64,000 nt of DNA from an uncultured Methanoregulaceae archaeon (GTDB lineage Archaea > Halobacteriota > Methanomicrobia > Methanomicrobiales > Methanospirillaceae): positions 1,568,001 through 1,632,000 of the forward strand of contig CAVTTL010000001.1 in assembly GCA_963737635.1 (NCBI GenBank), in the 5' to 3' direction. Both the position numbers and the translations under genes were made by a program. The notes beneath the pieces were generated by a model, which saw only the letters and a list, made by a program, of their open reading frames with translations, had not been told where the DNA came from and made no database searches. How positions within the stretch are numbered: the stretch's first letter is position 1; each line of letters starts with the position of its first letter. Below are positions 39,102-42,019 of this stretch, in pieces.

Positions 39102-42019
39102 ATGCGTACGCGATTAACGATTGCACTTATTGCACTCGTCGCGTTGGTGCTTGTCGCAGTACTGCCTCTCAAATTGTGGTGGGTAAATGCTTGATACGGT
39201 AACGTCGCGTTGGTGCTTGTCGCAGTACTGCCGGTATCGGCAACTTACTACGATATCAACAACACGATCAATCAGGGCGCAGTAGTGTATATTGGAGAAC
39301 AGCAACTGAATGTTACCAATGCCATGGGTCCGATATACACCCATGGTGATACCGCCATTGGCTGGTGGTCACCGGCCGCAGTCGTAGGCACTACGGCACC
39401 GACGGTCTCTATTCCGTTGAGTTCCATCACCAACAGTTCGTACTATATCTCCTCGGCTTCTTTTGGCGCCTATACTGGACCTTGGTACGGCGTTACTTCT
39501 ACTAGCGTAGGCGACACCGTTACTGGTGCAGTCTTCAACGTCCAGGATCCGAGCGTCAGTGTTGATGTATGGGATGAAACCACCGCAACCGCCGTAACCG
39601 GCGGCACTGCTATCCAGGGTGACAACCTTACCTTCCGTATCAACACGAACCTGCAGAGTGCACTCGACCCGACCAAGCGTAGTCAGGATGTTATTCCTGG
39701 CGCCGCCCAAATCGGTAACATAGATATCAAGGTACACAGTACCTACCGGAAACACGTATACTTCGCTGTTTAACACCACCTTAGCAAATGGAGCTTCAAA
39801 TACCGCGAGCATTACCTCGCAGAATGTGAGCTCAGCACTGTGGTTCTGGGGTACAGTTGGCGGAGCAGTTCCAGTTACCTCCGGCGCGGGCTTTAACATC
39901 AACTATGTATGGAATTCCGCCGCAACCGATTCAAGCGGTCAGCTGGCCTACCCAGCTGGTGTGTACACTGTTGTCGCCCAGTCCAGACTTAACGGGATGT
40001 ACGATAACTACCTGAACGGTGGCGCAACCTATACCGGTAAGACGGTAAGCCAGCCCGCAACAGTTACCCTATCGTCCAACACGGTCGCGATCTCGGCCAA
40101 CGTCAACTCCGTTGTCCGCAGCAAGGCGTTCTCAGTTACGATCACGGGCAAGCCCTATGGTATCTACCACCTGTGGATCAAGGGAACCAGCACCATGAAT
40201 GGTAACTACGACAACCAGCCGCCGTACATCACCGCGAACCAGGCAAACGTCGTATTTGACCCGATCAACACGACCAGCATTCCCGCGGCTAACAACCCGT
40301 ACAACCCGGTCGCCGACAACGGTGCCTACGTAACCCAGTACGGTGTCTCTATCTGGAACGACGTTGCCCACGGCAATGATATTGGATCATTCCAAAACCC
40401 AGCAACGGCCTCCGGTGTCGACGCAACTGCAATCGGCAACGGTACGTTTGAATACGCCAACGTGTCTCTCGACCAGACCGGTACGAGAACGGTTCAGTGG
40501 TCGACGACCAACTGGACAAAGGCTCAGCAGTACACCATCCGTGTCGAGCAGGACTTCGGAACCTCCGCGAACCACAACTACAAGTATGATGAGGTTAACG
40601 TGCAGGTCCAGAAGGGTGCAGTCACTATCGTTGCCGCCGGCTCACAGAGCTACTACCTCGGCGAAGAGGTACAGTTCTCCGGTACCAACACCGAATCCCA
40701 GACCACCTACCTGTTCATCGTTGGTCCCAACCTGGCCACCAATGGTGCCCAAATCGGGATGAACGCTCCAGCACAGTATCCAGTTACCAACAACAATCCA
40801 GGCACGTTCCAGCAGGTTAACGTCCTCGGTGACAACACCTGGTCATGGGAGTGGGGTACCAGTAACGTCGCTCTCGACGCAGGTACCTATACTGTCTATG
40901 CTGTCAGCGAACCCAACGATGCGAATAACTTAGCTAATGTGGCATACGGCACGGTCTCGATCATCCTTAAGGCACCGTTCGTCAGCGCAACCGCTTCCCC
41001 GTCCACTATCGCCCAGGGTGACGACTTATACATTACCGGCACAGCAGAAGGGAATCCATCGCAGGGCGTCCAGGTCTGGATCTTCGGTAAAAACTTTGCA
41101 TCGGTCAACCGGCAGTCCGTGGCATCAGATGGATCGTTCTCGTACGAAATAGAAGGAGCAGTCACTTCGGACCTGAGCTAACGGCCAGTACTTCGTCGTC
41201 GTCCAGCACCCCATGGAGAACGGTGTGTTCGATGTTCAGGCAGTTCCGCCACCGCAGAACGCAGACACCGGCCAGACCTCGGTTGTCTACACCGACAACC
41301 CCATCAGCCCGGGACAATTCCCGAGCGCAGACTCTGACGGTGATATGGAACTGCACAACTGTACCACAGACTTCGCCCTTTTCGGTCCTGGCGCCCTGCA
41401 GGGACCCAACGCTGCACAGGCACTGGTACAGGCGCTCAGTAGCGCGAATGTTGACGATACCTACACCACGCTCCCGTTCCGGGTAGAGACGCCGTACATC
41501 ACCATCAACCCGATCGGCGACCACCGGGTTGGCGACACGTTCACCATCACCGGCGAGACAAACCTTGCGGTAGATGACAACGTCCTCTTTACGATCTATT
41601 CATCGTCATTCGTGCCGACCGACACGAACAAGACCGAGGATGACGAATTCAGCGGTGCATCCGGCACGGTGGCAGTTACCCCGGGTTCCCATAGACTGAA
41701 CCAGGTCTCGTTCGATGTCGATGCATCCACGTTCGAGCCGGACGAGTATCTCGTAACCGCCAAAGCAGTGGATGACCCCACCACAAACGGGACGGCACTG
41801 TTCAATATTCTCGAAGCAAACGCCACGGCTGCACCGATAACGTCCCCGGTACCATCTGTCCCGGCCGGCACCGATCCGGTCGCTGCACTGCCTGGTACGA
41901 TGGTGCCAGTCACCACGGCCATCCCTTCCCCGACACAGCCGGGGTTTGGCGGGGTTGTGGCGGTTGGTGCGATAGGGATCTGCGGTATGGTAGGTGTGGA
42001 CCGGAAGAAAAGGATATAA
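39102..42019 (+). pseudogene. S-layer glycoprotein copy (DUF3821/MEMAR_RS02690-like, PGF-CTERM), interrupted by a 66-bp insertion with a stop; further frameshifts near 39740 and 41178
   Basis: GAVVYIGEQQLNVT, SQSYYLGEEV, VVVQHPM, PGF-TM-KKR; in-frame TGA in the signal-peptide insertion. Confidence 0.8.
39137..39232 (+). repeat. Perfect 30-bp direct repeat separated by a 36-bp unique insert
   Basis: cgtcgcgttggtgcttgtcgcagtactgcc at 39137-39166 and 39203-39232. Confidence 0.95.

Follow-up and report, generated by a model that had tools for sequence, protein, structure and literature searches.

We identified a scar with the geometry of a CRISPR repeat-spacer-repeat unit inside an S-layer gene of an uncultured Methanoregulaceae-like archaeon found in soil metagenomes. 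The scar lies in a stretch of 64,000 nucleotides (the window), whose numbering is used here unless a contig is named. Most likely it is a natural, recent and polymorphic off-target integration by Cas1-Cas2, a reading that we consider probable. Four lines of evidence agree: an exact match to the sizes in a resident CRISPR array, the pre-insertion state, the presence of the insertion in three studies, and a population without the insert.

The scar (39137-39232) consists of a perfect 30-bp direct repeat, with copies at 39137-39166 and 39203-39232 on the plus strand that lie 66 nt apart and enclose a 36-bp insert at 39167-39202, to which no strand is assigned. Both copies, termed pseudo-repeats here, derive from signal-peptide coding sequence and are 100% identical, as is evident from the sequence and from the repeat-family listing (family D18). 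The first copy is both preceded and followed by t and the second is preceded by a and followed by g; because these flanking bases differ, the duplication measures exactly 30 bp. The insert, a putative spacer, contains an in-frame TGA at 39192-39194, which terminates an ORF of 30 codons plus stop (39102-39194, plus strand) with the translation MRTRLTIALIALVALVLVAVLPLKLWWVNA, and the ORF list shows an in-frame continuation downstream of the stop that begins at 39210. The palindrome gcagtactgc is located at 39156-39165 and occurs a second time in the other copy. In folding calculations neither the pseudo-repeat (z = +1.03) nor the 96-nt unit (z = -0.23) performed better than shuffled sequences, and the 10-bp palindrome did not form a single-strand hairpin. 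The first-pass annotation, which was made from the sequence alone, had described the 30-bp duplication flanking a 36-bp insert, the stop codon that interrupts an S-layer signal peptide and the palindrome within the duplicated segment, and each of these features is borne out.

The interrupted gene (39102-42019, plus strand) had also been called an S-layer gene in that annotation, and its match to the NCBIfam profile NF041431 (MEMAR_RS02690 family) identifies it as an S-layer glycoprotein gene. In the assembly it is split into three pieces that correspond to positions 14-163, 193-574, and 587-809 of the 819 profile positions. An apparent frameshift near 39773 arises from one extra base at 39742 (plus strand), which is an assembly error rather than biology: contigs of all four sequencing runs omit one base here, and its omission restores the frame into the ORF starting at 39826, as checked against a paralogue. 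At 38738, all four runs read C where the assembly has T. Because the in-frame TGA ends the precursor after 30 codons, this S-layer paralogue is probably null and has probably lost its function.

The state of the gene before insertion is represented both within this genome and in relatives. In alignments, two paralogues of the same genome lack the 66 bp, and both carry the 30-mer in single copy. All seven close relatives (7/7) likewise have one copy of the 30-mer, no insert and an uninterrupted signal peptide, and in two more distant relatives (L021 and L027) the signal peptide differs and is again uninterrupted. Our search for related loci yielded only relatives of 42-64% protein identity (five loci in metagenome_contigs and five in genome_contigs), with no same-species contigs among them, and these relatives were used solely to show that the signal peptide is intact. 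An empty site that differs only by the repeat-spacer unit is present in the paralogues, in the relatives, and in a contig from a further study, X8, where it is bridged by sequence shared with the paralogues.

Contigs from three studies cover the insertion with no mismatches (X1, 39135-39263; X3, 39137-39232; X4, 39154-39232), and both junctions are contained in these data; one of the three insert-bearing runs is a possible source of the assembly. In a fourth study, X8, a single contig crosses the site; it passes directly from 39136 to 39203 and thereby skips exactly 66 bp. This contig continues for 597 nt without a substitution, and it therefore carries the variant of this gene rather than that of the 98%-identical paralogue, with the empty form bridged only through paralogue-shared sequence (27 nt plus the 30-mer). 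With a repeat of 30 nt, assembly from 31-nt words hides an empty form wherever the insert-bearing allele is present, and a form without the insert is therefore indistinguishable in X1, X3, and X4. The first-pass annotation had proposed to check spanning reads and the frequency of the empty allele; contigs that span the insertion were found, as was a form without it, the latter through the shared bridge just described. The insertion is real, and environmental populations appear to be polymorphic at this site.

The same contigs bear on whether the scar is an artefact of sequencing or assembly, for instance a chimeric read or a leftover adapter in a long-read assembly. Small assembly errors do exist (the extra base at 39742, and T for C at 38738 relative to all four runs), and completeness is only 90% for a genome of four contigs. 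However, both junctions recur without mismatch in contigs from three studies. The insert also bears no obvious likeness to the usual sequencing adapters. An artefact is thus largely refuted, and we regard it as extremely improbable.

In this genome cas1 occurs three times, alongside two CRISPR arrays. In array 1 (G000:C1:678.3-681.5 kb), 48 repeats are perfect 30-bp copies and one is degenerate, and its 47 spacers range from 24 to 43 bp, with 22 of 36 bp, seven of 35 bp, and seven of 37 bp. With a 30-bp repeat and a modal 36-bp spacer, the commonest period of array 1 is 66 bp, which is the period of the scar; the duplication has the length of the resident repeat, and the insert has the modal length of the resident spacers. 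The leader end of this array adjoins cas2, cas1, and cas4 of a type I-B module, and the Cas1 of this module matches the type I-B Cas1b family TIGR03641 at 415.5 bits (cut-off 304.1). Array 2, by comparison, has 37-bp repeats and adjoins a second type I-B module. The third cas1 (C1:1447778-1448596) has neither cas2 nor an array nearby; the six flanking ORFs that were scanned encode two PaaK-like ligases, an acylphosphatase, two proteins without a family, and a GlmM-type mutase. The first-pass annotation had suggested comparing the scar with the cas1 type and the repeat and spacer sizes of its genome. Since the array geometry was not known to that reader, the agreement found here constitutes an independent test that the integration reading passed.

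One spacer of array 2 matches an SMC-like gene of the host itself at 35/35 positions, and non-viral DNA has therefore been acquired by this host's adaptation machinery before. When the spacers of both arrays were compared with the chromosome, the only other match was 17 nt of one array-1 spacer (E-value 0.003), and no PAM for array 1 could be derived from these self-matches. At either end of the 47 array-1 spacers, the four outermost positions show no strong base preference, and no orientation of the insert could be inferred.

These observations are consistent with the following series of events. A CRISPR adaptation integrase of the cell itself would have placed a 36-bp prespacer in the chromosome; the likeliest candidate is Cas1-Cas2 of the type I-B module next to array 1, together with Cas4. 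The fragment would have entered the signal-peptide coding sequence of an S-layer paralogue instead of the leader-repeat junction, each of its 3' ends being joined to a different strand at points about 30 bp from one another. Two single-stranded gaps would have resulted, and their repair would then have duplicated the 30-bp target on either side, giving a product of 30 + 36 + 30 bp. We infer both the participation of Cas1-Cas2 and the choice among the resident enzymes. The event was presumably recent, given the identity of the two copies and the variation between environmental populations at this site.

A different Cas1 of the same genome could instead have acted, either that of the second type I-B module or the solo cas1 product functioning in the manner of a casposase. 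Both genes are present and look intact, and casposases are reported to integrate short oligonucleotides in vitro (PMC8464041). Casposons share with the scar a Cas1-family integrase, staggered attacks, and a target-site duplication, but as described in that source they are site-specific, kilobase-sized elements with terminal inverted repeats and duplications of 13 to about 14 bp (PMC8464041). The 36-bp insert and 30-bp duplication are not those of a casposon. In addition, the repeats of array 2 are 37 bp rather than 30 bp, and the ORFs flanking the solo cas1 include no cas2, array, or casposon-like genes. Action by one of these other enzymes therefore appears quite improbable, and the array-1 Cas1-Cas2 is retained as the preferred candidate.

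Off-target, or 'neo-CRISPR', spacer integration by Cas1-Cas2 has been described in E. coli by Nivala, Shipman and Church in 2018, who also gave circumstantial natural cases in two other species (10.1101/148544, PMC7054753, PMC6698737). As reported, the E. coli products resemble the scar in that a spacer-sized fragment is found outside an array and the target is duplicated over about one repeat length to give a repeat-spacer-repeat arrangement. However, those experiments, as described, used a type I-E system, overproduced Cas1-Cas2, and supplied oligonucleotides, whereas the system here is a native type I-B. They differ further in that the present event occurred in an uncultured archaeon in soil, at a site within a coding gene that gained a stop codon, and populations with and without the insert are both seen. 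Ectopic acquisition in Streptococcus thermophilus and S. mutans is similar in that integration occurs away from the leader-proximal repeat, but the events in the accounts cited take place within the array at genuine repeats (PMC7999890, PMC5338259, PMC8265633), in contrast to the unrelated gene involved here.

The closest archaeal comparison concerns Pyrococcus furiosus, whose Cas1-Cas2 is reported to carry out full-site integration in vitro at non-CRISPR DNA, with paired attacks 30-31 bp apart and a preference for G then C at these attacks (PMC6698737). This system likewise has 30-bp repeats and 37-bp spacers, and by hand count the array repeat of our host carries 12 of the 13 repeat positions named for P. 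furiosus (PMC6698737). At the scar, the joined 5' nucleotides are C on the plus strand (39137) and G on the minus strand (opposite 39166). The P. furiosus reactions differ in that they were performed in vitro on plasmids and the off-target sites reported were repeat-like (PMC6698737), whereas the target here holds, again by hand count, only 3/13 (minus orientation) or 1/13 (plus orientation) of the positions enriched at such sites. In Haloarcula hispanica type I-B, accurate 30-bp duplication is reported to require motifs within the repeat (PMC4872114), and hence an exact 30-bp duplication at an unrelated sequence is not guaranteed.

The 30-bp target agrees with the canonical repeat at 7/30 positions in one orientation and at 8/30 in the other, where the genome-wide mean is 7.4. 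The target thus does not resemble the repeat, although the preference for repeat-like targets in P. furiosus comes from one system and is not a defining requirement of Cas1-Cas2 integration. The E. coli off-target sites of Nivala, Shipman and Church reportedly resembled the native locus, in contrast to the target here. This dissimilarity counts toward a second explanation, in which a duplication with filler DNA arose without any Cas1 and its agreement with the CRISPR unit is coincidental. Such a scar might have formed when a staggered or double-strand break in the signal-peptide region was mended, with overhangs of about 30 nt filled in and a stray fragment of 36 bp captured, or by template switching at a replication fork.

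The origin of the insert bears on both readings. The 36-mer occurs nowhere else in its own genome, where the longest other match is 13 nt; neither the S-layer paralogues, which the first-pass annotation had named as a conceivable source, nor any other genomic sequence accounts for it, and the genome thus offers no template for filler DNA, which counts against that explanation. Exact searches of viral_contigs, metagenome_contigs, and genome_contigs gave no match in any of the three, a type of search that diverged protospacers would escape. A blastn search of phages returned eight records at chance level (best E-value 1, unrelated hosts), a blastn search of plasmids returned none, and no match with three or fewer mismatches was present in 400 other genomes of the order. 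No protospacer or PAM for the insert was therefore found across the collections searched, of which only the smaller allowed mismatches, and this outcome speaks for filler DNA. Since no protospacer was found, neither a PAM nor the foreign origin that we infer for the fragment can be demonstrated. The G+C content of the insert (38.9%) is 1.9 SD below the array-1 spacer mean (54.6 +/- 8.4%) and inside the spacer range (30.6-73.0%); a value below that of most resident spacers again speaks for filler DNA.

Other features argue against filler DNA. Under that explanation the match to both numbers of array 1, the 30-bp repeat and the modal 36-bp spacer (22/47), must be a coincidence, and staggered duplications of 30 nt are not, to our knowledge, the product of any repair pathway in archaea. 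Moreover, the 2.46 Mb genome has no second duplication-plus-filler scar of comparable geometry. With both arrays excluded, it contains 14 exact direct repeats of at least 20 nt within 150 nt, and the scar is the only one that combines a repeat of about 30 with a spacer of about 36. When mismatches were allowed (at least 26/28 matches, periods of 55-84), the scan produced two candidates, one of which is the scar. The other (C1:1653468, period 75) was rejected as a coding tandem repeat in which similarity continues through the 'spacer'. The structure of the scar is rarer than chance would give. We consider duplication with filler DNA unlikely and prefer integration by Cas1-Cas2.

Several other classifications were considered and rejected. 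An IS element or MITE does not fit a 30-bp duplication around an insert that occurs once in the genome and whose ends are not inverted repeats. The first-pass annotation had noted that the right junction of the insert matches the end of a 71-bp hairpin element at 13/15 positions, possibly by chance. Local alignment gives 12/13, a match equaled by 3.6% of 2000 shuffles and treated as chance, and since it also takes in two bases that belong to the duplicated sequence of the gene itself, a link between insert and element was rejected. Nor is the scar a functional CRISPR array, as the pseudo-repeats bear no relation to the repeats of array 1 or array 2 and there is a single insert inside coding sequence. 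The same annotation had proposed a natural one-spacer neo-array; the integration that this implies is supported, and all the refutation tests named in that annotation came out on its side, but 'neo-array' is to be taken here to mean a scar with array geometry, which does not imply crRNA processing and should not be filed as an array.

In the accounts cited here, off-target integration by Cas1-Cas2 was previously seen in E. coli that overproduced the enzyme and in vitro, and the natural cases were called circumstantial. The scar most likely adds a natural instance to the kind known from this work. The broken host gene would represent a cost of carrying an adaptation module, and such a mutagenic cost bears on the tight control of CRISPR adaptation and on its loss in many lineages. 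A bolder proposal, which we hold to be rather improbable, is that the CRISPR integrase acts as an occasional mutagen of host genes in wild methanogens and that this S-layer-loss allele spread under viral attack. If this were true, losing an S-layer paralogue, a likely docking surface for viruses, would confer resistance by another route, through a mistake of the immune system. In a weaker form of this proposal, such scars may be raw material for new arrays.

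The gene starting at ATG 39102 encodes an S-layer glycoprotein of the MEMAR_RS02690 family (NCBIfam NF041431), and its three assembled pieces cover 14-163, 193-574 and 587-809 of the 819 profile positions. As the first-pass annotation had described, its signal-peptide coding sequence carries two identical 30-mers, at 39137-39166 and 39203-39232 (repeat family D18), around a 36-nt insert (39167-39202). The bases flanking the two copies differ, which fixes the length of the duplication at exactly 30 bp. The reading frame passes through the first copy and enters the insert, where the in-frame stop noted previously (TGA, 39192-39194) ends it after 30 codons. 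3' of the insert the original frame is open again and leads on into the mature-protein coding sequence. Neither the 96-nt unit nor the pseudo-repeat has an unusual fold.

The state before insertion can be seen in two S-layer paralogues in the same genome, with ATG codons at C1:1243477 and C1:1790374 (C1 being one of its contigs), which past the insert share 98% and 77% identity, respectively, with the gene in the window. Both align through the site with a single 30-mer and a 66-nt gap. Each paralogue 30-mer differs by one base from that of the window, whose own two copies are identical; the duplicated sequence is therefore the gene's own. Among nine related loci from metagenome contigs and genomes titled Methanoregula or Methanoregulaceae MAGs, seven have the same kind of signal peptide without interruption, and the two most distant (L021 and L027) have a different signal peptide that is likewise uninterrupted. 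A conserved signal peptide has been interrupted by insertion. The C1:1243477 paralogue, 98% identical near its start, has only 112 codons open in the assembly and 32 gap openings relative to the window's gene across 2.6 kb, and is either a pseudogene or affected by more assembly indels.

A 1.2-kb stretch at this site is present at least partly in 13 public sequencing runs from six studies, ten of which hold at least half of its sampled words. Contigs from four runs, one per study (X1, X3, X4 and X8), were placed on the stretch. Mismatch-free contigs cover 39135-39263 in X1, 39137-39232 in X3 and 39154-39232 in X4, so both junctions exist outside the assembly, one of these runs possibly being its source. 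An assembly artefact, which the first-pass annotation had listed as an alternative, is excluded because independent contigs contain the insertion. X8 contributes just three contigs to the stretch, all of them without the insert. One of these, 827 nt long, joins 39136 straight to 39203 and continues to 39800 without a substitution; this variant lacking the 66 bp is thus that of the window's gene and not of the 98% paralogue, whose own variant (A at 39233) is found in X1 as a small contig of its own. On its left, the X8 joint has 27 nt plus the 30-mer, in sequence common to the paralogues, and we therefore infer the locus from an upstream contig ending at 39139. With contigs built from 31-nt words and a 30-nt repeat, the empty form is invisible beside the insert form. 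The insertion is real, recent and polymorphic.

Apart from the scar, the S-layer gene was probably intact. One base at 39742 is absent from the contigs of all four runs, and without it the frame reaches the ORF starting at 39826 and agrees with the paralogue protein; the apparent frameshift near 39773 is thus an assembly error. In addition, position 38738 is C in all four runs versus T in the assembly, and these two discrepancies show that the assembly carries small errors. A second frame break (41170-41213), where one ORF ends at 41181 and another starts at 41213, may be another single-base assembly error.

Several other repeats occur in the window. The S-layer gene's C-terminal tail (41938-42025), which resembles a PGF-CTERM sorting signal, is repeated 746 nt downstream (42684-42771, 89%; D10) without the gene body, and a HicA/HicB-like toxin-antitoxin pair on the minus strand (42227-42582) lies between the two copies. 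The arrangement looks like a second S-layer gene remnant or an insertion of the HicA/HicB-like pair. A 74-nt hairpin element with inverted ends has two copies (45393-45466 and 53184-53257) that are 99% identical, and beside it are intergenic repeats (45315-45389/56159-56233 and 53089-53180/56253-56344) with 93-97% identity (D7, D8 and D11, which include the element). The resemblance of the insert's right junction to this element, raised in the first-pass annotation, is at chance level. Eight tandem coding repeats at 8013-10065, with a period of about 264-288 nt and 61-78% identity to the reference copy (D1, D2, D4, D5), mark a gene for a repeat-domain surface protein.

The genome contains three cas1 loci and two CRISPR arrays. 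Array 1 (C1, about 678.27-681.46 kb) is made up of 48 perfect 30-bp repeats plus a degenerate one at the far end; its 47 spacers range from 24 to 43 bp, most commonly 36 bp (22 spacers), with seven each of 35 and 37 bp. Its leader end adjoins cas2, cas1 and cas4, past which are genes for a type III RAMP protein and for Cas8b1; this cas1 scores 415.5 bits with the type I-B Cas1b model, above the cut-off of 304.1. The four leader-nearest spacers (C1:681229-681433) are 34, 24, 27 and 30 bp versus the mode of 36, which could reflect imprecise recent adaptation or assembly error. The 23 repeats of array 2 are 37 bp long and its spacers 33-38 bp, except for one 67-bp gap; a second type I-B set adjoins it. 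One array 2 spacer (C1:1687935-1687969) is self-targeting, matching the host chromosome at C1:598593-598627 in 35/35 positions, within a long ORF for a putative SMC protein. The third cas1 (C1:1447778-1448596; locus L016, 9755-10687; Pfam Cas_Cas1, 172 bits) is solitary: its neighbours are PaaK-like ligase genes and an acylphosphatase gene, and no cas2, array or casposon genes were found among the flanking genes scanned.

The scar (30 + 36, period 66) reproduces exactly the most frequent unit of array 1, which the first-pass annotation had no means of knowing; the resident lengths are compatible with the spacer integration proposed in the first-pass annotation, and a cas1 lies beside the matching array. 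Across CRISPR systems, repeat lengths range from roughly 23 to 47 bp and spacer lengths from 26 to 50 bp; on these ranges a chance match to both resident lengths is, by rough estimate rather than computation, about one in several hundred. Outside the arrays, the genome has no more than 14 closely spaced, exact direct repeats of at least 20 nt, and none of the others shares the scar's geometry. A mismatch-tolerant genome scan gave one further candidate, a coding tandem repeat and hence not a second scar.

We consider off-target Cas1-Cas2 integration the most likely origin of the scar, with moderate confidence. Cas1-Cas2 carrying a 36-bp prespacer would attack the chromosome strands 30 bp apart, 5' of C39137 on the plus strand and 5' of the G opposite C39166 on the minus strand, and gap repair would then duplicate the 30 bp. 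The Pyrococcus furiosus enzyme makes off-target attack pairs 30-31 bp apart, a spacing set by its architecture, with G and C preferred (PMC6698737); the scar's spacing and attacked bases both fit. Integration by another Cas1-family enzyme fits the lengths less well, since array 2 repeats are 37 bp and the duplications made by casposons measure 13 to about 14 bp (PMC8464041) versus 30 bp here.

Other observations weigh against Cas1-Cas2 integration. Searches of its own genome and of viral, metagenome, genome, phage and plasmid collections gave no donor for the 36-mer. Compared with the canonical repeat, the target has 7/30 identities in one orientation and 8/30 in the other (chance level 7.4). 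Favoured non-CRISPR sites of P. furiosus in vitro are repeat-like at named positions (PMC6698737), where, by hand count, this organism's repeat agrees at 12/13 and the scar target at only 3/13 or 1/13. In Haloarcula hispanica, motifs inside the repeat are needed for an exact 30-bp duplication (PMC4872114). The G+C content of the insert is below that of most resident spacers, yet inside their range. A further alternative is a Cas1-independent duplication with filler DNA; however, the double size match must then be coincidence and the filler must lack a template in the genome. Of the "neo-array" suggested earlier, the repeat-spacer-repeat geometry stands, but the repeats of the scar are not CRISPR repeats and the term CRISPR array is therefore inappropriate for it.

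Translation of the precursor stops within the signal peptide. If it began again at TTG 39210 or GTG 39213, the resulting signal peptide would lack its charged start, and the interrupted paralogue is therefore probably not exported. Two paralogues are left, which may explain the persistence of the allele. Off-target integration has been described in E. coli with induced Cas1-Cas2, where it can seed "neo-CRISPR" units, and for two other species natural cases have been reported on circumstantial evidence (Nivala et al. 2018; 10.1101/148544, PMC7054753, PMC6698737); in vitro counterparts are known from P. furiosus (PMC6698737). We found no report of natural off-target integration breaking an archaeal host gene in the limited full-text collection searched. 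The phenomenon is thus already known and the scar is a further case, in which the pre-insertion state, an exact match to a resident array and polymorphism in the population are all visible for a native system in the wild.
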